Shown: one piece after another, positions 4,431-27,596 of the stretch | How positions within the stretch are numbered: the stretch's first letter is position 1 | How the letters are laid out: the number at the start of each line of letters is the position of its first letter | Assembly (NCBI GenBank): GCA_043228905.1 | Contig: JBHGNT010000005.1 | Coordinates: forward strand, 2,170,001-2,234,000 | Reading direction: 5' to 3' | Source: Azolla caroliniana | Taxonomy: Eukaryota; Plantae; Polypodiophyta | Length of the DNA: 64,000 nt | Translations under genes and position numbers: made by a program | The notes under the pieces: model-generated | Database searches by the model: none | What the model was told of the DNA's origin: nothing | The model's input: only the letters and a program-made list of their open reading frames with translations

Positions 4431-5646
4431 AAAAATCCTCCCGGTTCTCGCTACCGAGGGATTCGCGGTTTCGCTCGTGGTTTGGTCGCACCGTCAGAAA
4501 TTGGACCGAATGGCGCCCGTCCTGGCTTTTGACCCTTGCGTAGGCCGAACCGTTGTCCAGCACCTTGGTCTCCATTCGCGCCGCCGTGATGTATGGTTCC
4601 CCTAATATGACCGGGTGCGAGGACGTCTCCTGTACGAAGAAGTGCTGGTCAATCTCGACGTCGCTGATCTTGACTCGCACGTTTGGGCAGGCCCCGTGCA
4701 GTTCCTCGGTGGCGCGCGTCGCCGCCCGTATCTTCCACCCGTGCTTAGTGTTGATCAGCCACTTTCCCTTCTTATAGAAGTCCATGGACATTAGGTTTAT
4801 TTCCGAACCGTGGTCCACCAATGCCACCACCGGTTCCTGAACATCTCCGATCTTTACCGGGGTCTCCGTGGTCGCTCGGGCCCAGTGTGGCCTCGAATAG
4901 TGGCTCTCCGCCCACTCATCTGCCAGCGCAGAGTCGTCGATGTGCGTCGTCCGCACCTCCACCGGTCTTTCCGGTTCCGTCTCCGTCGACAACCTCTTCC
5001 GTTTCACCAAGTCTACAATGGAGTCGTGGAACTCCTTCTTTGCGATCCCTAGCACCTCCCGCAATGACAGCTCCACTTTGCTGTCGAGGATCCGTTCTTC
5101 TAGGACCTTTCGTAGGTCCGTAGTCCTTTCTATTTCCGTCCCCAGTCGGTATCCGCCCTTCCTGGGGTTATCTTGCGAGCCGGACCCACCGGCATCGTTC
5201 CGTCGTTGCCCGAATCGGGTCTCGTACCGTTGTGAGGGCCCGGCCGCTCTGGCTGTCCCCACTCGTTTGTCTTCTACCAGAGCCTCGTAGTTCCGGCAGG
5301 CGGCTTCTACGAAGCCCGTCTTCTCCTCGACCGGATCGCTCCAGCCGGTTATTTCCGCGCGGTCCGTTTCGTCTTTCCTTAGCCGTGCGCCGGCAACACC
5401 TTCCAGCATTGCCGACCAGAATCCGTCTTTGCCCTCCTTTCGGGCCTCGCTGCCCCCGACCCGAATGCCGGCCGACGCCGAGTAGTGGATGGCCTCCACG
5501 TGTCGGGCCATTGCCTCTTCCATTAGTCTCTTCATACCTCCTCGTCCGTTGTTTCGGTTTAGGGCCCTGCTGGTGTCGTCGGCGTGCACCCGGCCTTCCC
5601 ACAGGTACACCACCCGGTTCCTCAACGCTTCTACGAAATCGCCGCA
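4429..5646 (-). pseudogene. Gypsy A gag C-terminus and aspartic protease (3' half of the split gag-PR)
   Basis: Homologous to the B gag-PR ORF; ALVDHGSEINLM protease motif; ends GAG GAT TTT TAG. Confidence 0.92.
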
Positions 5647-5919
5647 GGGTCGAAGCATGCTACGGTGTACCAACTTTTGGCCAAAAATTTAGTACTAAAT
5701 CGAAGAAGAAAATAAACATTAAAAATTGTAAATAAGTTTCAAAAAACAAAAAACAAATTCATTACGTCACACTCGAATGCACAAAGATATTGTACGTCAC
5801 ACTCGAAATGTCACTAGGCCATATTTAATACATTAATTGTTGCCCCAGTCTCCTAGGTAGAGTTGTACGAAAGCACACCTGGAGAAGGTATCCATTGTGA
5901 CAGTTGGTCAGTCTCAGTA

Positions 5920-5994
5920 TCTCTCTCTCTCTCTCTCTCTCTCTGGTATGGGTAGTCGAACGTGTCAATTGGTATGTCTCTCTCTCTCACTCAC

Positions 5995-6027
<33 letters not shown>
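5920..6027. repeat. (CT)n microsatellites in the putative 5' region of the accessory gene
   Basis: Directly visible CT runs. Confidence 0.85.
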
Positions 6028-6030
<3 letters not shown>

Positions 6031-7033
6031 GTCTCGAAGTTGTCAGACAGACAGTGGCGGAAAGTTAAATAAAGACGACATATCTATTACAGGTCTATCT
6101 CTCTCTTTCTCTCTCTCACTCCACCTTCAAAGCTCTGTTTCTTTCTTTCTTTCTGTTTCTCTCTCTCACTCCACCTTCGATTCTCTGTTTCCCCGCGTAG
6201 CTGTGCTTGTGTTCCCCTCTGTGCCAGGTTCGATCTCTGAACGCAGAGATTTTTGTTTCCCCTGCTCGTTGTATGTGTTGTTGATTTTCCTTCCTTGTGT
6301 ATGCTCGTTTGTTTCCTCTGTCTATGCTCGTTTGTCTCCTCTGCAGCAGCCTCGTTTGTCGAAATCAACACGGTGTGGTACCTCTGCAAGTTGTACGACC
6401 TCCAGGTATTCTCTGTGTTGCATGCCCAACTGGTATGTTTTCTTTTTCTGAATGTTTCCTGTCTGTCTGTTTTTTATTTGCATGTGTATGGTCATTTTTA
6501 GGGTTTGATTATTCATAGTCTATGTGTTGCATGCCCAACTGGTATGTTTTTGTTTTCTCTGTGTTTCTCTGTGTTTCTTTTAAAAATGTATGACAATATT
6601 TTGATCGAGGTGGTTGTGTGTTAGACATGTTTGTACATGCAACGTAAATGGAGTTGGCTATGATGAGTTGCTATGTTTTCGTTTTGTTCTTGTTTCCTGT
6701 CCATCTGTTTTATTTTGTGTGAGTTTGACATGGATAAGTGTTTTTCCGACTATTTTGGGTTTTTGTGTGTTTGACATGGCTTGTACATGCGATGTGATGG
6801 AGTTGGCTATGATGATTTACAATGTTTTCGTTTTCTTTGACTTTCCTATCCGTCTGTTTTTATTGTCTGTGTGTTTGACATGGATGAGTTTTTTTCCGAC
6901 TATTTAGGGTTATTGTGTGTTTGACATGGTTTGTACATGCAATGTGATGATTTGCTATGTGTTGATGGTAATTGCTTGAGTTTTCTTCTAGTACATGCAT
7001 ATTCATTCCTTGAGAATTGTGTTGACTAGGACA

Positions 7034-10000
7034 ATGACGAGAAGGACACCCATAAAGAAGACATTGATGAAAGAGAAAGTGAAGACACCAGTGAAGGAAG
7101 GAAGAAGGACACCCATGAAAGAAAGCAAGAAGACACCCACAAGAGAAAGGGTGATGAATTCATCAACACAGAGAAAGAAGATGTACCACTCCATCAGTCG
7201 AGACACACCTCTTGGATGGAATTATTTCCTTCGAGTACGACCCGACGTGTATCCAGAGCTGAGAGAGTGGTTGTTAAAAACCTGGGGGTCAGCACATCCT
7301 GACACAAGGCGAGGATTCCACATAAGTGGTTTGAAGAGGGAATACATGAATTTATTGAAGACGAGATACGAACATGTTTATGATACAAATCAAATCACTA
7401 ACAATGAGGTGGGTACTGTTTTTGCACGTGCTTTTGCATGTGAAGTTCAAGGTGGCATTGACGTAAATTGGGAAGATTTTAATCGGCACCGGTCAGAACA
7501 TTACAAAGGGTCCTCCAGTACCAACACTGGCTTGAAGTCATCTGGAACCTCTCATGTGGATATTCTAGCTATAACACCTGTCCACCAAGTTCTAGAGGCA
7601 AAGGTACGGGCCACAATGACTGAAAAGCATGAACAGATGATGGCCGGTTGCATAGCTTCTATGAGCTCAAGAATACAAACACTACTTGCTGATTTGGAAG
7701 CAGTTAAATCAGCTGAAATACAGGCAGAAAAGAAATTTTCTTCAATAAAAACTACATATGAATGGATTGCATCGACAATCCAAAATTCAGAAAGTGAGGT
7801 GTTGAAAGAGGAGTTGAAGAAAGAGCTAAACAATATGGGCACTCAATTAGGTTCACAGATGAGAGACCTTGATACTTGCAGGAATGCACATGAAGAAATA
7901 GATAATAAGTTGTCAGCCTTAAAGTTGCATTCTGAGAACCTTGCATGCTTGATGCAGGATTTAAAACAAAATGGTTTTGATACTTTGTGTCCATCTGTAA
8001 TTGAGCACCCAAGTGGTATAGAAAGTACCATTATTAGTATAGCTATATCACGGTATTGGCTTTAAAAGTTATTTATTTCTACTTCTCTGGTATAAATAAG
8101 TGAGCAGCTAATATATTATAACTTGTGTTTGCAATCTTCCAGGTGTATATTTTGTGGCCTCAGATTCAAGCTGGAGGCTATGGATGTTGTGATTACACCA
8201 TGCTTGCACACATATCATGTGCTATGTGCTAAGTATCATTTTGAGAAAGAGAATACATGTATGGACTGTAAAACTACAATTGCGGCTGAGTGGTACTATG
8301 CTTGGGGTTTAAAAGTACACCCGTACGGTATGTGGCTCTACTATTCTATTGTTTGTATTATATGATGTCAATTAACATTTGGACTAGAACTAGTGTATGC
8401 CACAATTCATACTTCAAATTTAGTGTAATCTCTAACAACTATTATGTGGAACCCTAATTATGTGGGTTAGTATTGGCAGTACTCTTAATATATAATTGGT
8501 ATGTGTAGTTGAAGGGATATTTTCCACAATTAGTAGTACTAAAAGGGAACCAGGTACAACATCATCCAATCTATATTGCAACTTGCCTAGTATTAGTTTA
8601 GTAAACACTATACTTATAGTACACTGTTGACTGTTAAGATTGTTTGTGTAACATGGGAATTAGTACTAGTAATGTAATTTGGGAACAAGGTGTATAGTAA
8701 ATTGCTGAATAATAGTACAATTATTGTAATTTGGAAATGAGGTGTGTCAAACACATATCACGTTTAGTACTAATACTGTTCAAGATTAATACTGTTGGTG
8801 TAATTAGTACAAGTTATGTAACTAGGTGTGTAGAAGACATATCATGTTTAGTATTACTTGTGTGCAAAATACCAATCTACATTTGTTGGATTAGTACTTA
8901 GTAAGTACTACATGGTTCATGATTAGTACTAGTTCTATACTTTGTGAACTAAGTTACTAGTACATTGCTCATGATTAATACTAGTTTTGTAATTTGGGAA
9001 CTGAGTAGTACTTTGTTCCTTATTAGTACTAGTTTTGTACCTTATTAGTAATAGATCAGTAATCTAGAAAATAAGTGAGTAGTACATTTTGTAGGATTAG
9101 TACTAATTGTGTAATTTGACTAAGTCAGTGGTACATTGTTGAGTAGTATATTGTGCATGATTAGTACTACTTGTGTAAATTGGGAACTAAGTGAGCATTA
9201 CATTGTTCGGGATTAGTACTCCTTGTGTAATTTGCTAACTAAGTGAGTAGTATATTGTGCATGATTAGTACTACTTGTGTAAATTGGGAACTAAGTGAGC
9301 ATTACATTGTTCGGGATTAGTACTCCTTGTGTAATTTGCTAACTAAGTGAGTAGTATATTGTGCATGATTAGGACTACTTGTGTAAATTGGGAACTAAGT
9401 GCGCAGTACATTGTTCGGGATTAGTACTCCTTGTGTAATTTGCTAACTAAGTGAGTAGTATATTGTGCATGATTAGTACTACTTGTGTAAATTGGGAACT
9501 AAGTGAGCAGTACATTGTTCGGGATTAGTACTCCTTGTGTAATTTGCTAACTAAGTGAGTAGTATATTGTGCATGATTAGTACTACTTGTGTAAATTGGG
9601 AACTAAGTGAGCAGTACATTGTTCGGGATTAGTACTCCTTGTGTAATTTGCTAACTAAGTGAGTAGTATATTGTGCATGATTAGTACTACTTGTGTAAAT
9701 TGGGAACTAAGTGAGCAGTACATTGTTCGGGATTAGTACTCCTTGTGTAATTTGCTAACTAAGTGAGTAGTATATTGTGCATGATTAGTACTACTTGTGT
9801 AAATTGGGAACTAAGTGAGCATTACGTTGTTCGGGATTAGTACTCCTTGTGTAATTTGCTAACTAAGTGAGTAGTATATTGTGCATGATTAGTACTACTT
9901 GTGTAAATTGGGAACTAAGTGAGCATTACGTTGTTCGGGATTAGTACTCCTTGTGTAATTTGGTAACTAAGTGAGTAGTATATTGTGCATGATTAGTACT

Positions 10001-12215
10001 ACTTGTGTAAATTGGGAACTAAGTGAGCAGTACATTGTTCGGGATTAGTACTAGTTCCGTGATTTAGGAAATAAGTGAGTAGTACATTGTTCAAGATTAG
10101 TACTACTTATTAATTTGACTAAGTCAGTGGTACATTTTTCGGGATTAGTACTTGTGTAATTTGGTAACTAAGTGAGTAGTATATTGTGCATGATTAGTAC
10201 TACTTGTGTATATTGTGCATGATTAGTACTAATCGTGTAAATTGGGAACTAAGTGAGCAGTACAGTGTTCCTTATTAGTACTAGTTCAGTAATTTAGGAA
10301 CTATGTGAGTAGTACATTGTTCATGATTGGTACATTGTGTAAAATGGGAAGCAGCTCTTGTGACCTACATTATATATTTTAGATGATGGTACTAACATTC
10401 AAGGTTTTTTTGTTTCTTGCAATGAATGTTGTAGTGTCAAGCAACTCCACGCCAAGGAAGGTAATGGAACAACCAGCCCCTATGCCTAAACCCTCAATAT
10501 CTGCTACACATTCCAAGGTTCAGGGACCATCACTACCAATAACCTATGATTTTTATGATGAGGATGAATGTATGAGAAGGGCCATTGGAGCAGTGGAACA
10601 TATGCTTCTACAAACAAATTCCCCAAGCTCCGGTCAACATCAAGAAATAGAGCCCACTAAGAAGAGAAATGCAGTTTCTTTACAAATAGAGCCCAGTAAG
10701 AAGAGAAATGCTGCAAGAATGTTGTATGGAAACGGCAAGAAAGGCAAAGTTGAATGCAATGGTGAGTCATATAAGTTCTCACCTGTCTGGAGCATTGTCA
10801 ACCTAATCCATTGTCTAATACCATGTACTTGTGTTACTAGCTGATGATGAAATGATATTTGGTGACGGAGATACGAGTCCAAAACCTGATCATGAAGACG
10901 AATTTATCACACTCCCAGGTACACATCAAAAGCCAGACTTTGAAAACAATGATTAAGCTCATAACAACCCTATTTTTGTTGTTATTATAGATCATAACAA
11001 CACTGTTGAGCACCTAGATGTTGTGGAGAAGATGACCGAGCCCACCACTTGCAATGGGGTATCTACGGCTGTACAGTATGACGATGTAACATTAGGTAAA
11101 AATGTGGCCCTAAACCCTATGTTCATTGTTTGCAAACTTTTGAGTATGTGAGTTCATACCAATATTCTTTGGAATCCCATTAATTAGGTTTACAAGAGTA
11201 GTTTGATTCCCAACTGCAATCAAATGAATCGGGAACTTCATGGAGCACAAGTGCAGAATCAGATTCCCATCAGAGTCAGAATCAAATTAACCTTTGCAAG
11301 GAGGCAGACTCTGGAAGCACATCTTCCACACATGAGGATTGTGAGAAAAACGAAGCATTCATATGTGAAGAGCAGTTGGCATGTACAAACAACACTATGT
11401 CTAAAGAAGCCTATGAGTGTGGAAAGAATATGGCAAGTACTGAAGAGAAGATTGAAGCCCATGAAGAGTGTGGAAATAATATGGCAAGTACTGAAGAGAA
11501 GACTGATTGTACTGATAATGTGGCAAGTGCTGAAGAGAAGACTGATTGTACTGATAATGTGCTAGTACTATCTAAAGATTCCCATGAGGATCATGGAAAG
11601 AACATTGCTAGTAATGAAGAGGAGCTTGATTGTACTGAGAATGTGCTAGTAGTGTCTTGTGAAGCCCATGAGGATCGTGGAAAGAACATCGCTTTCCCTG
11701 AAGATAAGCCTGATTGTACAGAATCCCATGAGGAGTGTAGAGCGAACAACGTTACTAATGAAGGTGGGCCTGATTGTACTCAGAGCGAACAACATTGTCT
11801 TAAGAATGAGGTGACATCCATCGTACAAGAGGAGTTGACCATGACTACTGCCACGGTCCACATACAGGAGTCTAATAAGAACGAGTGTATAGGCATCGGT
11901 GATGATGATAGGGCAATAAAGATCGCTAGGAGTACAAGCATTCAGGAGATGAGTGATAATTTGTCTATCGACAACACCTTTGTGGATTTGTGTACAAGCA
12001 TTGCAGTTGCAGAAAACATAGTTGCTCTCTCAAGCTTGCCACCAGTACAAGGTGGCCGCGCATCCACGCCTGTCTCTGATGCCTCTGATGATGAAGTGCC
12101 ACTTAGTCAGCTCATACCTAAAGGCTTTAAGATAAAGAAGAATGTAAAATCAGAAAAATCTGGCACCAACAACAAGCGCATTACAAGATCGGCCAAGTTA
12201 CCCTCTAGTGCCTGA
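7034..12215 (+). pseudogene. Multi-exon accessory gene of the Sola2-like element: basic N-terminus, coiled coil, RING-H2 finger, acidic/Cys-rich repetitive C-terminus
   Basis: Inferred exons 7034-8052, 8143-8327, 8509-8553, 10435-10761, 10841-10918, 10991-11095, 11188-12215 joined by GT-AG introns in frame. RING-H2 CIFC-x15-CLHTYHVLC-x10-CMDC. One in-frame TAG near 11199-11201. Confidence 0.7.
9140..10050. repeat. 104-bp higher-order tandem repeat (two related 52-bp monomers, about 8.5 copies) in an intron; degenerate copies extend about 8600-10340
   Basis: AAGTGAGTAGTATATT recurs at 9241 and 9345; AAGTGAGC monomer at 9293; each monomer contains ATTAGTACT. Confidence 0.93.
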
Positions 12216-12344
12216 TTGTCTTTCGATTGTACTTGAACTTTAGTTGTTAGTGATGTCTGAAATTGAACTATTTGGATACCAAAATACTGTTTCAATTGCC
12301 AATGTAAAAAATCCAGTTCATGAATCTGAAATAGTTATACCAGT

Positions 12345-13310
12345 GTGAAATCAAGTTCATGTTTAAGGATTGCTTCTATATTTTGCTCATCAACATATAT
12401 CAAAAACAATGGGAATATACTTTTTTATCTAAGTATTCTTATTTTACAACGTTTTGTTTCTTTTTTGAGATCATCTCCTAATCCTCGCAAAGTCTTTCAG
12501 TCTATTGTAGATAAAATGCTTGAAAGTCTTCTTAGCTTGCTAGGAAAATTTAGGTTTTTAGGTGTTGATGATGAGAAACAGAAAATATCGGGTGTTATTG
12601 AAGATATACTGAAGTATAGACTGTTTCATCAATCCCATTTGGAGGATAACCAGAATGTGTGCAAATTGTTGAAGCAATGTGGGCCATATTTTGATGATAT
12701 CATCCCAAAGGATGAATCATCCACTAACAGTAGTAAGGAAATACTTACCTTTTTGAGCTATCACAAATTATTGTTTCAGAAGTTGGATTATTTTGTTAAG
12801 GAAAGGAAGGTCTGTACTTTAAAATCCATAGCCTGGATATTCAGGACTTATATACAAGAAGTAAAAACTCAGATGGCTTCACAGGACATATCATGAAACA
12901 AAAAAGGATTCTGAGAGAATAATTTTCATTGTTGTCTTTACAGAATTCATCGCCCCTTTTGAAAAATGAACTTACAGTAGAAAATCTTACAATATTAAAG
13001 TCTTTAATGAATTCAACTAACAATCTTCTCTTGGTAGCAAAAGAAGAGCAGATTTATGTGCCAACAGAGGACACACCAACTCTGCAAAACTCCTATGCTC
13101 AAATAACATCAGGAAACATGAGCAATATCGGCAATGAAGAAATCCAAGTCCTGTTGACAACAGCTAATATATTATGAAAGATAAGTACAAGTGGTTGAGA
13201 GGCATAAACCCTTTGGAAGAAAGACGAAATATATCAATTCATTTGTCAATCATCAAAATTAATAGTGAACTCCAAGTGGATGTTTTTCAGTTTTCTAGTA
13301 CAATGTATTG
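12345..13310 (+). pseudogene. Probable captured host gene fragment resembling plant URB2/Npa2 (nucleolar pre-rRNA processing protein)
   Basis: FLRSSPNPRKVFQSIVDKMLESLLSLLG, IEDILKYRLFHQSH and SYHKLLFQKL resemble, from memory, plant URB2 segments; stops and frameshifts present; no search was run. Confidence 0.5.
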
Positions 13311-13322
13311 ATAGGGTGACTT

Positions 13323-16300
13323 TCAAGCATTAAATAGAGAGACCTCCCCTAATATGTGCTCATGAACCTCTTGGGGGACCTTGTAGACAGTGTTGTATCC
13401 CTTAACCTTGTGCTTTGCTTGAGTCATATTGAATTTGATCGCAAGAATGGCATCAGCGTAGATTATTGCGATGGGTGCTTCTTTTAGTAATGCATATGTG
13501 TTCTTGCACTGCGGCAACTTTGCATAATAGTTTCCATACACGACAGACTCACCAACGTTGAAATTGTTGCCCCAACCATCCCTCACCACTTCTTTCAATA
13601 ATGTCTTTCCTTGCTTGCACACCACAATGTAGTAGTCTTCTAAATCTTCATTCTGAGAATATTTGAGCATTGCAAAATGATCTCCAACTTCCAATAAAAC
13701 TGCCAAGTCTTGATTTTCGTTGTAGTATACAATATCGTTTGAATGCACATCCTCTTCAATATCATCTTGTCGTTCAGGCTCAAGCTTCTGCAGCTTCCAG
13801 GGCTCCACGATTGATAGGTTGATGCATTTATCCCAAGCTTCATCTAGACACATGGAACAAAAGCATGATAAACTACGGAGTAACAATTGGGTTGTGTCCT
13901 TGCGGCTAAACCCTAACACACAATGGGTGTTGCGTGTGCCTTTCACGGTTTTACAACCATATGATTTAGTTCTATCAACCTCATCAGCGCGAACTTCAAC
14001 AAACAATATGTTCTTACCATCATTTGACATCTTCCATGATAGCCACTGCACAACATCATGTGCATTTTGTAACTTAGCGCCATTATTATCCAACTGCTCA
14101 CTTGTAAGGGCACGTTTGATCACAGCCCCCGCGCCATCATGCTCTCCTTTTCCATGTCCAGACCCGAAGTAATTCCATTGCATACGAATATTGAATAAGG
14201 AGAAATACCTGCTTTGGTATCTCAGGTTTCCAACAAAATTAGTACTATGTTGTCAATTGAGAGTACTACACTTCCATTAATATTGATTTAGTACAAATAC
14301 AAAACAAAGCATAGCACAACGTATCCATTGAGAACACTCTACACTTATTAAAAGATAAATAGTACTATGTTGTCGACCAACAGTACCTGGCATCCATTTA
14401 ATACTAACTTAGTATGGATATAGCACAAAGTATAGTACAATGAGTTCATGGAAAGCACTCTACATGTATTAACAGATAAATAGTACAAAATGTTCAATAT
14501 CGGATAGTACAATACAATGTGTCCACAGAGAACACAACCCTCCTTAGAAGATCATTAGTACTACAAGACATGTACTTTACATCCCCCAATAAACACTGAT
14601 TTAGTATAGATACGCTGAACATTGATTAATAGATAATCAGTACCACACAGTGTGTTTAAAAGATGAGTACAAGATGAGTACAATACCATGAGTACAACAT
14701 GAGTAAATACTGATTTAGTACAATTCTCTTAAGGACGGACAATACTATGAGTACAAGATGAGTACTTTACATCCTCCTGTAAACACAACATAGTACAGAT
14801 ACAACACACAACATAGTACAATGTGTCTATGGAGAACCCTTCACATGGATTAAAACATAATTAGTACAATTCTCTTAAGGACGGACAATACTATAAGTAC
14901 AAGATGAGTACTTTACATCCTTTTGTAAACACAACATAGTACAATGTGTCTATGGAGAACCCTTCACATGGATTAATCGATACTTAGTACAATTCTCTTA
15001 AGGACGGACAATACTATGAGTACAAGATGAGTACTTTACATCCTCCTGTAAACACAACATATTACAGATACAACACACAACATAGTACAATGTGTCTATG
15101 GAGAACCCTTCACATGGATTAAAACATAATTAGTACAATTCTCTTAAGGACGGACAATACTATGAGTACTTTACATCCTTTTGTAAACACGACATAGTAC
15201 AGAACCAACACACAACATAGTACAATGTGTATATGGAGAACCCTTCACATGGATTAAAACATAATTAGTACAATTCTCTTAAGGACGGACAATACTCTAA
15301 GTACAAGATGAGTACTTTACATCCTTCTATACACACAACATAGTACAATGTGTCTATGGAGAACACTTCACATGGATAAAAAGATCATTAGTACAATTCT
15401 CTTAAGGACGGACAATACTATGAGTACAAGATGAGTACTTTACATCCTTCTATACACACAACATAGTACAATGTGTCTATGGAGAACACTTCACATGGAT
15501 TAAAAGTTACTTAGTACAACATAATACAAACAAAATTAGTATGCATGCATCCATTCACAAGTGCAAGATTCGAATAGTTACAAACATAATTAGTATGCAT
15601 CCATGTGACTAGTACTGTTTGTTAATAGTTACAAACATAATTAGTATGCATCCACTAACACAAGAATTACTTCCTTACACATTGCATGATAAGTACTAAA
15701 CATATGGATTAAAAATTACCTGGCGATAAAGTAGAACGATCATGCCGCCTTAAACTGCGAGGCAGCACCATCAGACCAAACCCAATGACGGTTAAAGGTT
15801 AACCCTAGAGAAAATAAATATGCATGGTGAAGCTTAAAACAATGTTGAACAAATAGTGTATCATGCTTTTTATCATCTGAAATGTAAAATATTGATTTCT
15901 TATGTAACTCACCGTCTTGCCTCCAATAGCAAATATGTACAAGTATTGTACATTGATCATTGTACCAATGCATTGATTGAACCTCATTTTGAACTTTAAA
16001 TGTATAGTTTTCTGCAAAATCAATAACGGATACAATGACACCTGTTGGTAAGTTATTAATACATTCCTTGAACTGTGAATTTTGCCAATAACTCCGGAAG
16101 TTATGTGGAATAAACTCCCCAAGTTGTTTCTTAAATTCTGAGACAAGGGTAGCAGCACATGTCTCCTTATATACTTCCTTGATACGCTTAGTTACAACTC
16201 CCTTGCCAATATTTTCAGTCACATACTCCAAATATTTCCATTTCACGATATGACTATTTCCCATATCAAGCTCCTGCCTACAAAATAATGGTAGCGGACA

Positions 16301-17367
16301 AACCTTACATGTTCTTAATAGACATGTACGACGATGCCACTCACATGATGGTTCTTTTTCACAAACACAAGACCTCTATAGCTCAAAAACGGATGCATAA
16401 GTCATGTTTCGTGCATTACACCTATTATCCTCCCCATTTGGTCTACAAATCTCACAAGTGCAGACACATAATTCCCCATGTATACCCTTAGAATCAGTAC
16501 GCATTGCATTCACTGCTAGCCTTAACATGTCCATCTTCACATGGTACACACAACAACATGTATTCCTCTCATTTAATTTTCTAACATAAAATGGTTTCAA
16601 ACCTTGGAACTTGCGGAATCCGACAGTCAAGCTTGGATGTTGGTCTTTAAAGTTCATGTACAATTCAGCCTACATCAACCAATATATATAGCAAACATTA
16701 ATATACACTTGGTCAAAACACAAAGTTATGGAATGTGAATTGTTATAAAAAAATGGAATACCTCTGTCATCTCCAAGAAGTGTCTAGGGTGAATCTGGTA
16801 CTTACCCTGACTTATTCGTTGTCTACACACGTCCTTCTTATTTGGTGAGACACGAGTATTTTTGGCCCAAAATGAATCCACTTTCTCAATAATCTCTTGA
16901 GCTAAGGCATCACATCGTCGTCTACGTCCCGACCCCAGCCACTTGAATTTGCTTGAGTGTATATTTCGGCGATGTTTCCTCAAGTTCCTTCTTTGAATAC
17001 CTAGGGCTAAGGCAACTTTAGTATCACTATATTTTTTTTCTCTCGCACCGTTCACAACCATGTGTAGGGCTGCCCTCTTTGCAGCAAGTTTGTCTAAGCT
17101 CTCTACACCTTTCACTAAGTCTAGGGATGACTTCATAGACTCCACAATCTCTTCTGAAACACATTGGTCCCTAAATTTTATTCTCTCCATGTCTTCATTC
17201 AAACTTTGATGGTGTAACACTCTACAGATAATATCCCTACGATCCTCTTCACTAAATCTCTTCGTTATTTCTACCAAATAACGGACTATGTGAAGAACCA
17301 CTCGTCTCTTAGTCCTTTCAGATATGCATGAGTTACTTGACAACTCACTCTCGTTAGGAACCCCCAT
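13323..17367 (-). pseudogene. Sola2-type DDD transposase, three inferred exons (17367-16762, 16669-15720, 14208-13323)
   Basis: GT-AG introns 16761-16670 and 15719-14209 join the ORFs in frame; Cys-rich region followed by the catalytic motifs; premature stops TAG (16376-16378) and TGA (15740-15742). Confidence 0.85.
14715..15520. repeat. Tandem repeat, units about 123-146 bp, about 6 copies, inside the transposase intron
   Basis: TTAGTACAATTCTCTTAAGGACGGACAATAC recurs near 14715, 14861, 14984, 15130, 15265 and 15388. Confidence 0.9.
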
Positions 17368-17422
17368 TCGGTCACTAGATTTATCCACAAAAATTAAGTG
17401 TCTTGCGAAAGTAGTTAATGTT

Positions 17423-18060
17423 ATATAGACTCAACCAAGAAAACACAATCAAATGTTTTTAAATGTGGCCTGCAAAGTGAGAAATATTTTGTTTCAAACA
17501 TTAGAATTACATATCAAATATGACAAATGTCAATTCTAAAAATTTAGTACTGAAATATGAAGAAATGAAACATTTTAGTACTGAAAATAAAAAAAATGGA
17601 TGGAAGGAACCTCCAATGGTGGAGGGAGCGTGGATATATAGACTCAACCAAGAAAACACAATCAAATGTTTTTAAATGTGGCCTGCAAAGTGAGAAATAT
17701 TTTGTTTCAAACATTAGAATTACATATCAAATATGGCAAATGTCAATTCTAAAAATTTAGTACTGGAATATGAAGAAATGAAACATTTTAGTACTGAAAA
17801 TAAAAAAATGGATGGAAGGAACCTCCAATGGTGGAGGGAGCATTGGATATGCCGCCTCGATTTGGTGGAAGGAACCTCCAATGGTGGAGGGAGCGTGGAT
17901 ATGCAGCCTCGATTTGGTGGAAGGAACCTCAAATGGTGGAGGGAGCGTTGGATATGCCGCCTCGATTTGGTGGAAGGAACCTCCAATGGTGGAGAGAGCG
18001 TTGGATATGCCGCCTCGATTTGGTGGAAGGAACCTCCAATGCCGCCTCGATTTGGTGGAA
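17423..18060. repeat. 213-bp direct duplication followed by about 53-bp tandem repeats upstream of the transposase
   Basis: GACTCAACCAAG at 17428 and 17641; GCCGCCTCGATTTGGTGGAAGGAACCTCCAATGG repeated about 5 times. Confidence 0.88.
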
Positions 18061-18605
18061 AAAGCCCCAAATCACCACGACATCAACTGCAATCGGTGGA
18101 AGTACGAAAGTCGTTGTCGAAGAAGTGACTATTGGCTGCTACCTAAACCCTCAAAACAGTCTCTGTACCTCAACCGAAACCTAACAAAAACAGAAACCCT
18201 AAAAAAATCAGAAATCCTCAACTCAAACTCTCCAACCAGACATGGATGTCTGAGATTTAGATTGAAGGAAAATCAGAAACGTGACATGGATGTCTGTGAT
18301 GAAAAGCTCAGAGGGATAGAGGAAGAACAGTATGAGGGGAATCGCCAAAACGACGTGAGGGGAAGCGCCAAAATCGACGTGAGGGGAAAATAGCCCCCAA
18401 AATGGAAGAACATCTCCTCACGTGTTCCCCCCACTCCTTCTACAGTAAATGACACTTGTACTACAGTCACCCCACTCTCCAAAATCGATTTTCTTTTTCT
18501 CTAATTTTTTTTCTGAATTATTCAGTACTAACAGTATTGAAAGTACTGACAATTTTTGTGGCCAAAAACAGTACTTTTCTGGTACACCGTAGCGTGCTTC
18601 GACCC

Positions 18606-19503
18606 CGCAGTCCTTCCGGATGTGGCCGACCTCGTCGCACCACATGCACCTGTTCCCTGTTGCCGGTCGTCGGTCACGAGCCGGTTCGCCGCCTTCCCTT
18701 CGAGTCTGGGCGATCTGGAGATCCTTTATCGCCCGCGTCAACTCCTCCAGCGTTGCTCCTCCGGACGAGCCACTGACCATGCCGGTCGAAGCCGGACCGG
18801 TTTCGAGCCATTCCCAGGTATCTTCCCTTCGCCCTTCCGGTGCCGGTTCAAGCCTCCTTGCTGTGACAGACCCCGCACCGGCCGCCCCATTATCAGCCCA
18901 TTCTCGCCGTTTGTCGAAACGGCCACAGACTCTCTTAACCGCAGCCCAGTCGGTCGTCAGCCCGTCTTCGGTTTCCAGCAAGGAGCTGACTTGATCCCGG
19001 TCCCGCTCGTCCACCGACTTGACGAACAGTAGGACCCGGCTCGTATCCAGAACGGTTCGGTCAAGCGCCGAAAGGCGCGCAAAGCGTTCTTCAAACTCCC
19101 GGAGGAGTGCCGACGCGTTTCTTCCCTTGCCGGGGGACTCCACCCATTCCATGAAGTCTCGTTTCGAAAGCCGGAGCGCGTCGTCCAGCCCGTATTTTTC
19201 CAGGAGTCGGCCTTCGAACTCCTCCCAGGTACGGCTCTCCGCCCGCACCTCGAGCACCTCCGCATGGATGCTCGGCATCACCACTCGAGGAAACCCGGCA
19301 AGACTCCTCTCTTCCAGAATGTCCCGCATCAGCATTTCTGCCCCGTAGGACGCCAAATACTTCGTGGCATCCTTTCCGCTGAACCGGCCGATCGTACCGA
19401 CGACCGCCTCAATGGCTCTATCGAGGGCGTCGGAGCCCTCGCGTGCGCTCAATATCCGATCCACGGCCGAAGCCATGGCCTCCGCAAGATCCGACCCTTT
19501 CAT
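18606..19503 (-). pseudogene. Gypsy A gag N-terminal half, ending at the CCHC zinc knuckle
   Basis: MKGSDLAEAM... through CMWCDEVGHIRKDC; cut by the Sola TIR. Confidence 0.92.
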
Positions 19504-21163: not shown

Positions 21164-21946
21164 TGTCGTGAAGAAAACCGTCCCTAAGTGGAATCAGCAC
21201 ACCGAGGCGTGGGAACCGGTTCTTCACACGCGCACGCTCCAAGTTGTACATAGAGTCGAATTAAGAGGATAATCGGCAGGAACGGGCCCTAACACGAGTG
21301 GAGACAAAGACCGCGCGAACAGTCTTTTCGGTCACGCGCGCGAACTGTACGAGTCGGCGGCGTAACTACGCGGATGCGTGAAGAACGGAGCGGATCCCTG
21401 TCCAAAAGGGACAGGGAATAAAGCTGACATGACGGCCTGCTCGTCGGCCTATATAAGGAGCAGGAAAGAGCTGTTGCAGGGATCTCGCGCGGAGAGGACG
21501 AAGTGCTGTCGGACCGTTTCTGGACGCTTCTCTCTCTGCTTTCCCCCCCCTTCTTGAGCTCCATAGCTTTCTGTGCAGGGTTCCGAGGAGGCTCGCGCTG
21601 TTTCGAGGAACGCCCGAGTGCTTCCGGCAGCACCTCCGACCTGCTTCCCCTTTGTGCGTCGAAGCGAACAGGCATCGGCATCTGTTCGCCGGCCTGTTCG
21701 GTTGTAACCAACCTGCGCCCCGTCGAGGGTTGTAGTCGTGCTAGCCATTTTGTTAATATACGTATTCAGTCATTCGCATCTGTCTGTGCCGGTGTCTATC
21801 GCGTTCTCCGTATTGAGGGCCGTGTCCCTGCGTATCCCCGGTCCTGCGTAGCCGGTTCTCTCTCTTTCTCCTCCCTCGCTTGCTCTTTGGTTCGAGACCC
21901 CCGCGGTCCCGCCTCGTTTCACACGCACTTGCGTAATATCTCGACA
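21164..21946 (+). repeat. 5' LTR of gypsy B
   Basis: TGTCGTG...CTCGACA; TATA box CCTATATAAGG near 21448. Confidence 0.96.
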
Positions 21947-21950
21947 TCTT

Positions 21951-21968
21951 TGGTGAACCCGACGTGAA
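21951..21968 (+). promoter_or_regulatory. Primer binding site, tRNA-Trp (gypsy B)
   Basis: TGGTGAACCCGACGTGAA. Confidence 0.85.
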
Positions 21969-21990
21969 AGAGGCGGCAGAAGAGCAGAAG

Positions 21991-24117
21991 ATGAGGGGGT
22001 CGGATCTCGCAGAGGCCATGGCTTCGGCCGTGGATCGGATTGTAAACGCGCGCGAGATCACCGGTGCCCTCGACAGAGCTATTGAGGCGGTCGTCGGCAC
22101 GATCGGCCGGTTCGATGGGAAGGATGCCACGAAGTATTTGGCGTCCTACGGTGCAGAGATGCTGATGCGGGACATTCCGGAAGAAAGGCGTCTTGCCGGA
22201 TTTCCCCGGGTGGCGATGCCGAGCATCCATGCGGAGGTGCTCGAGGTGCGGACGGAGAGCCGTACCTGGGAGGAGTTCGAAGGTCGGCTCCTAGAGAAAT
22301 ACGGGCTGGACGACGCGCTCCGGCTTTCGAAGCGAAGGTTCATGGAATGGGTGGAGTCCCCGGGGAAGGGAAGAAACGCGTCGGCGCTCCTCCGGGAGTT
22401 CGAGGAAAACTTTGCCCGCCTTTCGGCGCTCGACCGAACCATCCTGGACACGAGCCGGGTCTTGTTGTTTGTCAAGTCGGTCGACGAACGGGATCGGGAG
22501 CACGTGGGCCTCTTGCTGGAAACCGAAGACGGGCTCACTACCGACTGGGCGGCTGTCAGGAAGGTCTGTGGCCGTTTCGACAAACGGCGAGAATGGGCGG
22601 ATAACGGTGCAACCGGGTCGGGCTCGGTCGCAGCAAGGAAGCTCGAACCAGCGCCACAGGTGCGAAAGGAAGAGACCCGAGAGTGGTTGGATACCGGTTC
22701 GGCTTCGACCGGCGTAGTCAGAGGCTCAACCGGAGGAGCGGCGCTGGAGGAATTGACGAAGGCGATAAAGGACCTCCAAATCGCGCAGGCCCGAAGGGAA
22801 GGAGGCGAACCGGCTCGTGACCGACGGCCGGCGGCAGGAAACAGGTGCATGTGGTGCGATGAGGTCGGCCACGTTCGGAAGGACTGCGGCGACTTCGCGG
22901 AGGCGCTGAGGAACAGGGTGGTGTACCTGTGGGAAGGACGGGTGCATGCCAGCGACACCCGAAGGGCCCTGAGCCGAAACGACGGAAAAGGTGGTATGAA
23001 AAGGTTGATGGAAGAGGCGGCGGCCCGACACGCGGAAACCGTTCACTACTCGGCGTCGGCCGGCATTCGAGTTGGGGGCGGCGAGGCCCGAAGGGAAAGC
23101 AAAGCCGGATTCTGGCCGACGATGCTGGAAGGCCTTGCCGGTGCAAGGCTTAAAGGGGAGGAATCGGACCGTGCGGAGAAACGGGTACGGGAGATGACCG
23201 GGTGGAGCGACCCGGTCGAGGAAAGGACGGGCTTCATGGAAGCCGCTTGCCAGAACTACGAGGCTCTGGTAGAAGAGAAGCGGGTGGGGAGACCCGGGAC
23301 GACCGGGCCCTCACAACGATACGAGACCCGGTCCGGGCCACGACGGGACGAAGCCGGCGGGGCCGGTACGCAAGATAAACCCCAGAAGGGCGGGTACCGT
23401 CTGGGGACGGAGATAGAAAGGACCACGGACTTACGAAAGGTCCTGGAGGAACGGATCCTCGACAGCAAGGTGGAGCTGTCGTTACGAGAGGTGCTGGGAA
23501 TTGCCAAGAAGGAGTTCCACGACTCCATCGTGGACTTGGTGAAACGGAAGAGGCTGTCGACGGAGACAGAACCGGAAAGACCGGTGGAAGTGCGGACGAC
23601 GCACCTAGACGACATGGCGCTGGGAGACGAGTGGGCGGAAAGCCACTATTCGAGACCACACTGGGCCCGAGCGACCACGGAAACCCCGGTGAAGATCGGC
23701 GATGTCCAGGAACCGGTGATAGCTTTGGTGGACCACGGATCGGAGATCAATTTGATGTCCATGGACTTCTATAAGAAGGGCAAATGGCCGATCAACACCA
23801 AGCACGGGTGGAAAATAAGGGCAGCAACGCGCGCCACCGAGGAACTGCACGGGGCCTGTCCGAATGTGCGAGTCAAGATCGGCGACGTCGAGATTGACCA
23901 GCACTTCTTCGTGCAGGAGACGTCTTCGCATCCGGTCATTCTGGGAGAGCCGTATATCACGGCGGCGCGAATGGAGACCAAAGTGCTGGACAATGGTTCG
24001 GCCTACGCAAGGGTCAAAAGCCAAGACGGGCGCCATTCGGTCCAGTTTCTGACGGTACGGCCGAACCACGAACGTAACCGCGATTCCCTCGGTTCCGAAA
24101 ACCGAGAGGATTTTTAG
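21991..24117 (+). CDS. gag: Gypsy B Gag-protease polyprotein
   Basis: Open ORF (first ATG 21991); CX2CX4HX4C knuckle CMWCDEVGHVRKDC; protease ALVDHGSEIN...VILG. Confidence 0.92.
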   Translation: MRGSDLAEAMASAVDRIVNAREITGALDRAIEAVVGTIGRFDGKDATKYLASYGAEMLMRDIPEERRLAGFPRVAMPSIHAEVLEVRTESRTWEEFEGRLLEKYGLDDALRLSKRRFMEWVESPGKGRNASALLREFEENFARLSALDRTILDTSRVLLFVKSVDERDREHVGLLLETEDGLTTDWAAVRKVCGRFDKRREWADNGATGSGSVAARKLEPAPQVRKEETREWLDTGSASTGVVRGSTGGAALEELTKAIKDLQIAQARREGGEPARDRRPAAGNRCMWCDEVGHVRKDCGDFAEALRNRVVYLWEGRVHASDTRRALSRNDGKGGMKRLMEEAAARHAETVHYSASAGIRVGGGEARRESKAGFWPTMLEGLAGARLKGEESDRAEKRVREMTGWSDPVEERTGFMEAACQNYEALVEEKRVGRPGTTGPSQRYETRSGPRRDEAGGAGTQDKPQKGGYRLGTEIERTTDLRKVLEERILDSKVELSLREVLGIAKKEFHDSIVDLVKRKRLSTETEPERPVEVRTTHLDDMALGDEWAESHYSRPHWARATTETPVKIGDVQEPVIALVDHGSEINLMSMDFYKKGKWPINTKHGWKIRAATRATEELHGACPNVRVKIGDVEIDQHFFVQETSSHPVILGEPYITAARMETKVLDNGSAYARVKSQDGRHSVQFLTVRPNHERNRDSLGSENREDF

Positions 24118-24173
24118 AGAGGACTGCCAAGGCGTGGGGCCGCGACAGTCCGGATGCTCCGGGAAACCCCCAC
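24108..24173 (+). promoter_or_regulatory. Putative -1 ribosomal frameshift signal (G GAU UUU, spacer, stem-loop or pseudoknot)
   Basis: Pol frame is -1 relative to gag-PR and open from the heptamer to 27596; same heptamer at 4432-4438 in A. Confidence 0.7.
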
Positions 24174-27100
24174 ATCTGTACGATAAAACCGTGTACAATA
24201 GGTAGGAAATTTTGCTTCTCCGACAGCGGAGCATGTACGATGGTCGGCATCACCGGCCGAGAGAAAACAAAGACGGAGGGGAGACTTCGGGCGTGCGGAG
24301 TTCTCGGCCCTGACGAAGGAATCAACGGAGCCGTGGAGGCAGTCTCCTTCGACGACACCTTGGGGATGCTGGGGAAGGTAGTCGAAGAAGACCTTAACGA
24401 AGACCGGACGATACCGGTATGTTCCGAAGAAATGTACGAAGTCATCGCGGACTTCGGTCGAGGGCTCGAGTCGGAACGGACGGCCCGAGTGAGCACCAAG
24501 TACAAGACGGTGGACCGGAAGGTGAGGCCAGTTGCGGCGCCCTTACCGGAAGGCAGCGAATCCCGAATCAAAGGGGTTGCATGGGACCCCAGCTTACGAG
24601 ATCCGGCCTGCATAGGACACACCTTCACCAACGAGACGCTCCGCGAGCTGAAGATCGGTGGGGGCGGGTTCCTACTGCCGATGGAGGAAGACCGGTTTCG
24701 GAGAATGCTCGGAAGGCACGGGAAAGCCTTCGCATTCTCACCGGAGGAAATCGGGTGCGTAGACCCGACGATCGTAGAGCCAATGGTGATATTCACGGTA
24801 CCGCATGTACCGTGGAATCTCAAGCCAATTTCGGTTCCGAGAGCTCACATCCCGAAGTTGATGGAGCTGTTGAAGCAGAAAGTTGATATGGGCATTCTCG
24901 AGCCGTCGAGCGCCCCGTATTCAAACCGGTGGTTTACCGTACCAAAGAAAAACGGATCATTGCGCTTCATTCAGGACCTGCAACCGGTCAATAGGGTGAC
25001 CATTCGGAACGCAGGAATCGGACCGACCATAGACGAGTTCGCGGAGGCCTTCGCCGGAAGGTCGATTTACTCGGTCGGTGATCTATACTCAGGGTACGAC
25101 CAGTTCCAGCTAGCCGTGGAGAGCAGAGACATCACGACGATGCGAACTCCCCTCGGCCTCGTGCGGATGTGTACGCTGCCGCAAGGAGGGACCAACTCGG
25201 TGGCCCACATGGTGAATGCAATGAACAAGGTGCTGAGGGACTGCATCCCGGACATCACCATGCCGTTTCTAGACGACATCCCGATCAAGGGATGCCCGGT
25301 AGAAGACAGGGACGAGACGATCGGGCCGGACGGATGCCGGCGATTCGTGGTAATGCACATCGACGACTGCGAGAAGGTGCTGCAAAGGCTAGAGGATGCG
25401 AGGCTCACCTTCTCGGGGGAGAAATCAGCCTTCGGGCAGTCGGAAATCATGGTGGTCGGACACTTATGTGGGCCATATGGCCGGAAACCGTCTCCGGCAA
25501 AGGTAGAAGCCATCTCCGCGATGAAGCCCGTCTGCGGCTCGGTCACGGAAGTACGAAGATTCCTGGGGGCATGCGCATTCTACCACATATGGATCCCGCA
25601 TTACGCCCACGTTGCGGAGCCGCTATACGGACTATTGAGGAAAGGGCGAAGATTCGAATGGCTAGACGAGCACACGGAGTCGGTCCGGAAGCTGAAGGAG
25701 GCTCTTTCGGCAGCACCGGCGCTCCGGAAGGCCGTCTACAGGAAGGGCACCCCAGTGTACATAACGGTTGACACGAGTCCGACCGGAATCGGGTGGGTCG
25801 TCAACCAAGAAGACGAGGACGGCAATCGGTTTCCGATCCGATTCGGCGCGAAGGTCCTCAGCGAACGACAGCGAGGATACGCCCAGGTTAAACGCGAACT
25901 CTGGGGTATCGTTTCGGCGGTAAAGGCCGACAAGGACTATCTGATCGGGACAGAGGTAATCATAGAGACGGACTGCATGCCGATTCTCGGCATGGTTTCC
26001 GGATGCGCGACGCCGGACCTGGCAATGCTCAGGTGGATAGCGTACATCAAGTCCCTGGACCCGGAAATACGACACATTTCCGGGAAAGACAACGCCATGG
26101 CCGACATGCTTTCAAGGGCGAGATTCGATGACGAGGGCGGCATGGTTTCGGAGGACGAAGAGGTCGGCGTGGACTTCTTCGAGACTGCGTATGTAACAAC
26201 CGACGGAACAAGCACTCCGGCGCTTAACGACTTCGACGCGAGCAAGTACGACGGGGAGTGGCTGCAGATCGGTGGGTTTTTGAAGACGATGACGCCCGAT
26301 GCGTCATGGACGAAGGACGAGGCCAACCGGATCCGGAGGAAAGCGTACCGGTTCTTTCTCCGGGATGGCTACCTATGGAAGCACCCGAAGAAGAGGGACG
26401 GCGCTCCGCTCCGGGTGGTGGCGATGAAGGAAGAACAGGAGGAGCTGCTGACGGCCTACCACGACAGCCCTTGGGCTGGACACCGTGGAACATGGGCTAC
26501 GTTTGAGAAACTAAAGGGGAAGTATTGGTGGCCGGGGCAGTACCAGGACGTGCATCGGTTCGTGACAACTTGCGAGAGCTGTCAGATGCACTCCATAGTC
26601 CGACATCGGGACGAGCTTCACCCCACGTACCCTCCGACCATCCACTTCAAATGGATGGTAGATCTGGTAACGATGCCAATGGGAGTAGGACAGATGCGGT
26701 ACCTGGTCCTAGCGCGGGAGGATCTGACGAACCAGGTGGAAGGCCGGGCCCTTCCGAACAAAACGACCGCGGCCGTATGCCGGTTCCTAATCGAAGACGT
26801 GATATGCCGGTACGGGTGCGTCGGGAAGATCGTGGCTGACCGAGGGGAGTTGGACGCCGAAGAAGCCGCGGAGCTGTTCGACCGGCTGGGAGTCAAGCTC
26901 TCGCTCACCACTGCGTACAATCCGGAGGCGAATGGGAAGGTGGAGCGCGGACACGGGCCGATCGTCAAGGCGTTGGTTCGGGCATGCGGAGGCCAAGTCG
27001 GTAACTGGCCGCGGCTGCTACCTTATGCCTTGTGGGCCGACCGGACCACGCACAGTTCGGTAACCGGGTACATGCCGACGGAGCTCATGTTCGGCCAGAA

Positions 27101-27596
27101 GCCGATCATGCCGATGGAACGGACGATCTCCTCGTGCGCAACGGTCGACTGGAGGGACGAGATGAACCGGGAGGAGTTGTTGGCCGCGCGTATACGACAG
27201 CTCGAGCGGAGACCGGAGGACGTGGAACTGGCTGCGGAGAGGCTCCGGGTGGCGAGGGCAAAGAACAAAGCCAGGTTCGACCGAACGCACCGGCTCCGAC
27301 CGAAGAAGATCGAAGAAGGTGACTGGGTGCTCGTCTACGACAGCAGCCTCGACAACCAGCACCGAGCTACACGGAAGTTCGCACAAAGGTGGTTTGGGCC
27401 TTACGTGGTACGGAGCGCCAATGACAACGGGACATATCACCTGGCGGAACTTGACGGCACGAGAGTGGCGATACCGGTTGCAGGGAAACGGATCAAAGCG
27501 TTCAAGAAGCGACACGACGACGAGCCCGACCCGGCTCTCCTGGTCGGCAGGGACGAACGATCCGAAAACGAGGAGGAACCGACAGGCGAGGAATGA
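24114..27596 (+). CDS. pol: Gypsy B Pol (RT-RNase H-integrase), probably entered by -1 frameshift (first ATG at 24240)
   Basis: 1118-aa ORF; FLDD, TVDTS, H-H-CC zinc domain, DDE core, GPY motif; no chromodomain seen. Confidence 0.93.
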   Translation, partial: LERTAKAWGRDSPDAPGNPHICTIKPCTIGRKFCFSDSGACTMVGITGREKTKTEGRLRACGVLGPDEGINGAVEAVSFDDTLGMLGKVVEEDLNEDRTIPVCSEEMYEVIADFGRGLESERTARVSTKYKTVDRKVRPVAAPLPEGSESRIKGVAWDPSLRDPACIGHTFTNETLRELKIGGGGFLLPMEEDRFRRMLGRHGKAFAFSPEEIGCVDPTIVEPMVIFTVPHVPWNLKPISVPRAHIPKLMELLKQKVDMGILEPSSAPYSNRWFTVPKKNGSLRFIQDLQPVNRVTIRNAGIGPTIDEFAEAFAGRSIYSVGDLYSGYDQFQLAVESRDITTMRTPLGLVRMCTLPQGGTNSVAHMVNAMNKVLRDCIPDITMPFLDDIPIKGCPVEDRDETIGPDGCRRFVVMHIDDCEKVLQRLEDARLTFSGEKSAFGQSEIMVVGHLCGPYGRKPSPAKVEAISAMKPVCGSVTEVRRFLGACAFYHIWIPHYAHVAEPLYGLLRKGRRFEWLDEHTESVRKLKEALSAAPALRKAVYRKGTPVYITVDTSPTGIGWVVNQEDEDGNRFPIRFGAKVLSERQRGYAQVKRELWGIVSAVKADKDYLIGTEVIIETDCMPILGMVSGCATPDLAMLRWIAYIKSLDPEIRHISGKDNAMADMLSRARFDDEGGMVSEDEEVGVDFFETAYVTTDGTSTPALNDFDASKYDGEWLQIGGFLKTMTPDASWTKDEANRIRRKAYRFFLRDGYLWKHPKKRDGAPLRVVAMKEEQEELLTAYHDSPWAGHRGTWATFEKLKGKYWWPGQYQDVHRFVTTCESCQMHSIVRHRDELHPTYPPTIHFKWMVDLVTMPMGVGQMRYLVLAREDLTNQVEGRALPNKTTAAVCRFLIEDVICRYGCVGKIVADRGELDAEEAAELFDRLGVKLSLTTAYNPEANGKVERGHGPIVKALVRACGGQVGNWPRLLPYALWADRTTHSSVTGYMPTELMFGQKPIMPMERTISSCATVDWRDEMNREELLAARIRQLERRPEDVELAAERLRVARAKNKARFDRTHRLRPKKIEEGDWVLVYDSSLDNQHRATRKFAQRWFGPYVVRSANDNGTYHLAELDGTRVAIPVAGKRIKAFKKRHDDEPDPALLVGRDERSENEEEPTGEE

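Follow-up and report, generated by a model that had tools for sequence, protein, structure and literature searches.

A spliced RING/coiled-coil gene and TAGTAC motif arrays in a two-gene, Sola2-type transposon of Azolla caroliniana

The DNA analyzed here is a stretch of 64,000 nucleotides from the fern Azolla caroliniana (assembly GCA_043228905.1, contig JBHGNT010000005.1, positions 2,170,001 to 2,234,000 of the forward strand), called the window below. It contains an AT-rich, Sola2-type DNA transposon of 12,959 bp (5647 to 18605) with two convergent genes, both lying within its terminal inverted repeats (TIRs): a transposase gene on the minus strand and, on the plus strand, a spliced gene for a RING/coiled-coil protein, which we call the accessory gene (Table 1). 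An initial annotation made from the letters alone had already placed that gene wholly inside the TIRs. The transposon sits inside a GC-rich gypsy retroelement, in whose gag frame it made a clean insertion: when placed on an intact gypsy paralog present in the window, the two flanks overlap by CGCA. The founding Sola paper reportedly describes Sola2 elements as having short TIRs with 5′-GRG ends, and the 26-bp TIRs found here begin with GGG. The target site duplication (TSD), CGCA on both sides, has the length of 4 bp that is the rule for Sola2 (PMC3627910). The translated transposase displays the motifs DFAENY, Q.E.QS.HW, SDG...Q.K and WN.F...HGK...DG.G in the order of the published Sola2 alignment (PMC3627910, Additional file 10), a match established by eye between the window translation and that alignment, with no profile score. 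The assignment of the element to Sola2 is supported by this motif match.

The accessory gene is modeled as six coding exons joined in frame by GT-AG junctions, with 913 codons and a single internal stop codon (TAG at 11199). The canonical junctions and the lone stop agree with the initial annotation, which had counted seven exons. Within intron 2, 11 open candidates for a seventh coding exon are bounded by AG and GT; all are short or inside repeats, and none was retained. A seventh exon, if there is one, must lie at the 5′ end and be non-coding, and none appeared in the RNA reads. The open 339-codon exon 1 has a chance probability of approximately 3e-11 given its base composition. At the other end of the gene, 1 of 500 shuffles surpassed the likeness of the C-terminal motif of exon 6 to the related model P0026, and likewise 1 of 500 for P0027. 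The accessory gene has one stop and the transposase two, which leaves the window copy dead or close to it.

Table 1. Features of the Sola2-type transposon and its two genes (window coordinates)
Feature	Position	Strand	Remarks
Left TIR	5647-5672	+	Begins GGG; TSD CGCA at 5643-5646
Accessory gene, exon 1	7034-8052	+	Basic tail aa 1-52, helical domain aa ~57-157, linker, coiled coil aa 197-313
Conserved N-terminal domain	7202-7513	+	All-helical; without Pfam or solved-structure match
Accessory gene, exon 2	8143-8327	+	RING-H2: C341, C344, C360, H362, H365, C368, C379, C382
Accessory gene, intron 2	8328-10434	+	Motif array; homogenized 104-bp (2 x 52-bp) unit x10.4 at 9140-10215, core ATTAGTACT
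Accessory gene, exon 3	10435-10761	+	Low complexity; short conserved stretch EDECMRRAIG, common to the expressed paralog
Accessory gene, exon 4 (predicted)	10841-10918	+	Splice sites retained in L003
Accessory gene, exon 5 (predicted)	10991-11095	+	Donor retained in L003
Accessory gene, exon 6 (predicted)	11188-12215	+	TAG at 11199; acidic Cys-containing repeats; C-terminal motif weakly common to Adiantum models
Insert between the two genes	12340-13170	+	Lower depth than flanks; contains 188-codon open frame, coding status unsupported
Sola2-type DDD transposase	13323-17367	-	3 predicted exons (to 16762; 16669-15720; from ~14211), ~815 codons, 2 internal stops
Transposase intron 2	14212-15719	-	Array of 123/135-bp units, AGTAC(T/A)-rich
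Transposase upstream region	17422-18570	-	213-bp x2 and 53-bp x4.3 repeats; seven AGTACT sites, three <=60 bp from right TIR
Right TIR	18580-18605	-	25/26 bases identical to left TIR; TSD CGCA at 18606-18609

The accessory protein begins with a basic tail (7034 to 7190) that has 18 Lys or Arg in 52 residues and four S/T-P-x-K/R sites. Such sites, which resemble cyclin-dependent kinase sites or the SPKK motifs of histone H1, recur in relatives down to approximately 38% identity and are absent from the relative P0031; they could connect the protein with AT-rich DNA or with the cell cycle. Next comes a domain of approximately 100 residues, 55 to 70% identical across five subfamilies. The initial annotation had suggested predicting its structure, and this domain alone gave a confident five-helix model from 18 sequences (predicted local distance difference test score, 81.9; predicted template modeling score, 0.77). 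The model had no Foldseek match at an E value of 0.001 in PDB or BFVD and a best Z score of 3.6 among 48,161 chains, negatives that establish neither a new nor a different fold. Fold searches with a 287-residue model gave generic helical hairpins only, a sequence search of PDB gave weak coiled-coil matches only, and the ESM Atlas yielded only generic RING clusters (<0.9) for P0031, with no usable match for the N-terminal domain.

The coiled coil read from the sequence at the outset was modeled as two long helices; a homodimer prediction of residues 57 to 317, run without an alignment, scored 0.00, which speaks neither for nor against dimerization. In distant relatives the N-terminal domain is 55 to 62% identical, versus 31 to 35% for the coiled coil. 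Exon 2 encodes a RING at residues 341 to 382 (8144 to 8269) with all eight zinc ligands in C3H2C3 spacing, complete as the initial annotation had it. These ligands are kept in the genomic copy L003 and in the relatives P0022 and P0031, with two to four residues between the last two Cys; two of them are lost in the dead copies L002 and L005. The acidic repeat tail, also foreseen, is long and includes 39-bp (x2.4) and 84-bp (x2.2) repeats.

Sister copies carry the gene. DNA run X1 holds 411 contig records over positions 10340 to 14600 and run X5 holds 520 over 6040 to 8890, at identities ranging from >99% to <90%, and 18 of the 24 listed runs contain half or more of the sampled words. In X5 the word depth, which is no copy number, was 1,124 to 1,846 for near-identical contigs versus 15 to 20 for diverged ones. 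Among seven fetched loci (L001 to L007), L002 and L005 establish linkage by running from exons 1 and 2 and the array directly into transposase DNA, via one common deletion; L003 has exons 1 to 5 with the checked splice sites intact, and four of the seven end or break within or soon after exon 1. The breakpoints at L002:3115 and L005:4252 mark an internally deleted derivative in which the intron array is fused to the last exon of the transposase at a short common AGT-rich stretch.

The ratio of nonsynonymous to synonymous substitution rates (dN/dS) in exon 1, between the window and L001 to L006 in that order, was 0.14, 0.41, 0.27, 0.41, 0.41 and 0.42, i.e., below 1 in all six pairs (L007 was omitted as too short). 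Where transitions dominate, the method underestimates the ratio for neutral change: neutral simulations with a transition bias had median values of 0.57 to 0.77, and 0.14 was obtained in 0.2 to 0.3% and 0.41 in 1.2 to 4.3% of the runs. Purifying selection on exon 1, for which the initial annotation had proposed a check, is supported by these values, and the transposase has a similar dN/dS (0.41 to 0.52).

Relatives extend well beyond the sister copies. Thirty-five representatives and 35 profile matches fell into subfamilies at 97, 62, 60, 62, 40 and 38% identity, whose clusters hold 31, 37, 12, 4, 1 and 1 sequences, respectively. Open, full-length exon-1 products are found at 62, 60, 40 and 38% identity, and all end at the same intron position. 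P0031 (approximately 27% identity) is an intronless form of 405 residues that has the domain, the coiled coil and the RING in one frame. The only named relatives of the accessory gene are five related gene models of Adiantum nelumboides. No longer relative of exon 1 was present among 2,076 candidates, which is weak evidence; none was found in prokaryote or viral contigs, and the sequence and profile searches returned no named host gene. From copy number and decay, we infer that the distant subfamilies are transposon-borne, and the multicopy two-gene Sola2-type family likely belongs to ferns. Because of its copies, its linkage to the transposase, the selection on it and its age, the gene is very probably a real, integral second gene of the transposon family and founds a new protein family. 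The initial annotation had likewise regarded it as integral to a Sola element, and the sister copies, distant relatives and Sola2 motif match bear this out. Two outcomes that it had named as refuting, absence of the gene from sister copies and neutral evolution, were looked for and not observed.

Expression was examined in two poly(A) RNA runs, X21 and X23, from a second organism (organism B), approximately 12 in 100 of each run being read. Exons 1 and 2 collected 89 reads in X21 and 30 in X23, every one of them in sense orientation and almost all <90% alike. At the start of exon 2, 17 sense reads in X21 and 6 in X23 continue into letters that, translated by hand, give the end of exon 1 of the relative P0036. 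Intron 1 is therefore spliced as predicted, in a paralog that is 62% identical. Ten listed read differences in exon 2 leave five codons synonymous and four changed, and the zinc ligands are unaltered among them. In exon 3 both runs also have a short match in frame, and small numbers of their sense reads fall on the tail and on the transposase. The P0036-type paralog is 98 to 100% alike across entries, and its nearest kin are decayed, at 58 to 75%. P0036, P0001, P0037 and P0038, together with the reads on 7400 to 8340, thus present one invariant, expressed and spliced paralog beside decayed siblings. This paralog could have been domesticated, or it could be the only member of an old subfamily that is still live.

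The non-coding parts of the transposon are rich in a short motif. AGTACT occurs at 55 sites in the element, versus 3 in 26 kb of other AT-rich DNA (38001 to 64000). Intron 2 of the accessory gene has 32 of these sites and the transposase intron region 12; others lie beside the left TIR (5691) and the right TIR (18524, 18542 and 18570), and the motif is nearly absent from exons. The array core ATTAGTACT is present 32 times in the window versus 0.57 expected, a number reached in none of 100 shuffles, most of the sites being copies within one tandem array. With the homogenized arrays removed, GTACTA (52 versus 5.1 expected) and AGTACT (28 versus 2.0) are the top two 6-mers. The initial annotation held that the accessory gene and the transposase have AGTACT-rich intron arrays in common. 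This is true of the motif and does not extend to the repeat units, which are unrelated (52/104 bp versus 123/135 bp); the best match between the arrays is 17 nucleotides long (E value, 0.032). As the arrays share no more than those 17 bases, the motif was amplified twice.

Comparison of the window with the diverged array of L002 showed that TTAGT sites are 97% identical, versus 76% for the background. The motif-rich introns are depleted of CG and CHG, as expected for long-methylated DNA. These patterns point to a T-T-A-G-T-A-C core that is under selection or repeatedly amplified, and they do not thereby identify the protein that would bind it. The 53-bp tandem unit (x4.3) upstream of the transposase, at 17813 to 18041, is richer in GC and does not resemble the AGTAC arrays; it could form a second array for binding. 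The likeness of the motif to YAGTATTAY, the motif of VANC21 (7 of 9 bases), was treated as chance.

What might such a gene do for its transposon? By analogy with VANDAL elements, we propose, tentatively and with confidence well short of even, that the accessory protein binds the TAGTAC motif of its own element and uses its coiled coil, RING and acidic tail to oppose host silencing. The conserved domain of approximately 100 residues and the basic S/T-P-x-K/R tail would contact DNA; the motif-rich introns and the element ends would serve as landing sites, expanded by tandem duplication; the coiled coil would gather the protein on the arrays; and the RING would recruit a ubiquitin-conjugating enzyme (E2) to ubiquitinate a chromatin or silencing factor nearby, or would act as a binding surface. 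As an outcome, both convergent genes would be transcribed and the element would transpose. A motif-binding anti-silencing helper is ranked first because the layout, a second gene plus an amplified non-coding motif, is that of VANDAL, and because VANC, the VANDAL accessory protein, has a coiled coil (PMC13547354). The layout also agrees with that of TnpA systems. VANC binds motifs of 8 to 9 bases that are amplified in non-coding tandem repeats (PMC5735166), and the same feature, a short motif amplified in the non-coding tandem repeats of the same element, is present here. The enrichment of the motif in non-coding parts only, in two unrelated repeat units, also argues for this proposal.

A number of observations weigh against it. 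The N-terminal domain is charge-neutral, with 14 Lys or Arg versus 14 Asp or Glu. Pfam scans of exons 1, 2, 3 and 6 (E value, 0.1) and of 18 relatives (E value, 0.05) matched this domain to no Pfam or known DNA-binding family, and they detected neither DUF1985 nor DUF287, which are found in VANC. Active RINGs typically have a Pro after the seventh ligand and a helix Trp, hallmarks of E2 binding. The RING found here lacks both, has a Lys at the linchpin place and scores below the Pfam gathering threshold for zf-RING_2 (24.7 versus 27.3 bits; E value, 2.8e-5); P0031 has the Pro. The ubiquitin ligase (E3) step is the weakest link, the ligand pattern being complete and conserved and the E2-binding hallmarks partly missing, and whether the RING has ligase activity is, judging from its residues, close to a toss-up.

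The selection and expression data bring further reservations. L002, L004 and L005 have stop codons in common, and there are therefore approximately three or four independent dN/dS comparisons; the interval for L003 (0.07 to 1.07) includes 1, and the values for exon 2 (0.53 to 0.58, from two dead copies) and exon 3 (0.56) are higher. The spliced reads come from a paralog <90% identical in the second organism and not from the window subfamily, for which none of the listed runs was an RNA run, a negative that says nothing about its expression. Of the splice junctions that the initial annotation proposed to seek in RNA, that of intron 1 was recovered; X21 and X23 contained no junction beyond it. 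In the L002 comparison, the AGTAC/GTACT positions are only 82% identical versus 76% for the background, the C of AGTAC being modestly conserved. Finally, the motif adjoins both TIRs, where transposases bind.

This last point leads to the strongest rival explanation, in which the transposase reads the motif and the accessory protein is a helper at the protein level, for example an E3 or scaffold for transposase turnover, transpososome assembly or degradation of a host restriction factor. The AtMu1 transposase, acting alone, binds the members of its family and lowers their methylation (bioRxiv 10.64898/2026.08.24.746577). Because transposases alone can relieve silencing, and because AGTACT sites flank both TIRs and also lie upstream of the transposase gene, the motif may be one that the transposase binds. 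Both the RING and the coiled coil are modules for protein interaction, and the absence of a net positive charge on the N-terminal domain fits the same explanation. However, like VANC targets, the majority of motif copies are intronic and kilobases away from the ends, whereas the AtMu1 transposase peaks at TIRs according to the same preprint, and in distant relatives the novel domain is better conserved than any other part of the accessory protein, the coiled coil included. We regard this explanation as possible though doubtful. If the accessory protein does bind the motif, it might instead serve transposition or self-limiting regulation, as a co-factor or repressor like TnpA, without relief of silencing. 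TnpA of maize Spm is required for transposition (bioRxiv 10.64898/2026.08.24.746577), the motif lies near both ends, and the accessory gene and the transposase are similarly constrained. We nevertheless find this quite unlikely, considering that end synapsis does not need internal intron arrays and that silencing is relieved by both VANC and TnpA, the accessory motif binders known so far.

The least probable of these alternatives, for which we see little chance, is that a captured host gene hitch-hikes in the element, the signal of selection coming from the host copy and the arrays being neutral by-products of slippage. The invariance of the one low-copy expressed paralog of P0036 type would suit a host gene, Sola2 elements do acquire cargo such as Fanzor1 (PMC3627910), and linkage to the transposase was seen only for the window subfamily. 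Yet selection is apparent between near-identical copies of the transposon-borne subfamily (L001), the exon 1 ratios differ from the neutral decay within the element that characterizes Pack-type capture, and three high-member clusters retain the open frame. As for near-identity to one host gene, another Pack-type feature, the only expressed relative seen is 62% identical, and its decayed siblings are what an old element family would leave. The Adiantum forms comprise several degenerate models, and the searches turned up no named host gene. Returning to the proposed anti-silencing helper, its fullest form would be that a sequence-specific anti-silencing factor, itself a ubiquitin ligase, arose in fern Sola2 elements independently of both VANC and TnpA; a novel domain that binds DNA would take the RING to the intron arrays, where silencing machinery or chromatin would be ubiquitinated, and one copy would since have been domesticated by the host as an expressed gene. 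We consider the whole of this scenario unlikely.

Other features of the window surround or interrupt this system. In X1 the insert between the two genes has a word depth of 73, versus roughly 150 to 700 for its surroundings. Poly(A) reads of organism B match it in sense orientation at approximately 90 to 97% and diverge beyond 13157. It is probably a captured piece carried by a sub-lineage. Its 188-codon frame (12330 to 12896) was rejected for now as a third gene: all 12 listed RNA differences are nonsynonymous, and a putative intron is crossed unspliced. Positions 1 to 38000 of the window contain nested retroelements, the gypsy element that harbors the Sola2 transposon lying itself inside a copia-like element. 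A second GC-rich gypsy gag-pol region (21937 to 27596) is nearly intact, with a CpG observed/expected ratio of 1.19, not depleted. On the minus strand, an open frame of 317 codons at 53831 to 54784, without Pfam match, is probably an exon of a host gene, and a 278-bp unit is repeated three times in tandem (94% alike) at 57252 to 58092.

To our knowledge, transposon-encoded anti-silencing factors come only from flowering plants. If the proposed function is true, the accessory gene would represent a third, unrelated anti-silencing system, in another superfamily and in seed-free plants, which would mean that the design of a protein plus a motif array was invented repeatedly, and the RING would suggest ubiquitin as the effector in removing silencing. 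Regardless of mechanism, the gene defines a new protein family, characterized by a small, confidently modeled domain whose fold matched no known one in the searches. Sola2 elements are usually regarded as single-gene, and a long-lived two-gene Sola2 branch exists in plants whatever the second protein does. In a literature search at the level of result listings, with Repbase outside its scope and a prior annotation thus possible, we found no Sola2 element described as having motif arrays and a RING/coiled-coil accessory gene.

Among known systems, the VANDAL elements of Arabidopsis with their VANC proteins are alike in having a second gene in a DNA transposon, a short motif amplified in non-coding tandem repeats and repeats within the variable part of the protein (PMC5735166, PMC10398659), as well as a coiled coil in that protein (PMC13547354). 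In contrast, VANDALs are Mutator-like elements and the element described here is of Sola2 type; VANC has DUF1985/DUF287 and a MAIN-like domain and is described as dicot-specific (PMC13547354), whereas the accessory protein lacks these domains by Pfam and has a RING. En/Spm TnpA is likewise a separate accessory regulator that acts on the element's own sequences. It has transposase-derived tandem helix-turn-helix domains, to which the Pfam and fold searches gave no match here, and is reported from flowering plants only (bioRxiv 10.64898/2026.08.24.746577). TnpA is encoded by CACTA/Spm elements, as opposed to the GGG ends, 4-bp TSD and Sola2 transposase of the present element. By its sequence and its host element, the accessory protein is neither VANC nor TnpA. 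RAG1/ProtoRAG also places a RING in the context of a DDE transposon; there the RING lies within the transposase chain, and here a gene of its own encodes it. Two-gene DNA transposons that have accessory regulators, and Sola2 elements with cargo, are already known, amoebozoan Sola2 elements having Fanzor1 as their second gene (PMC3627910). The window element has the transposase motif order, short TIRs and 4-bp TSD of Sola2; it differs from those described in that source by a GC-rich instead of AT-rich TSD, and by a second gene that is a spliced RING/coiled-coil gene accompanied by motif arrays.

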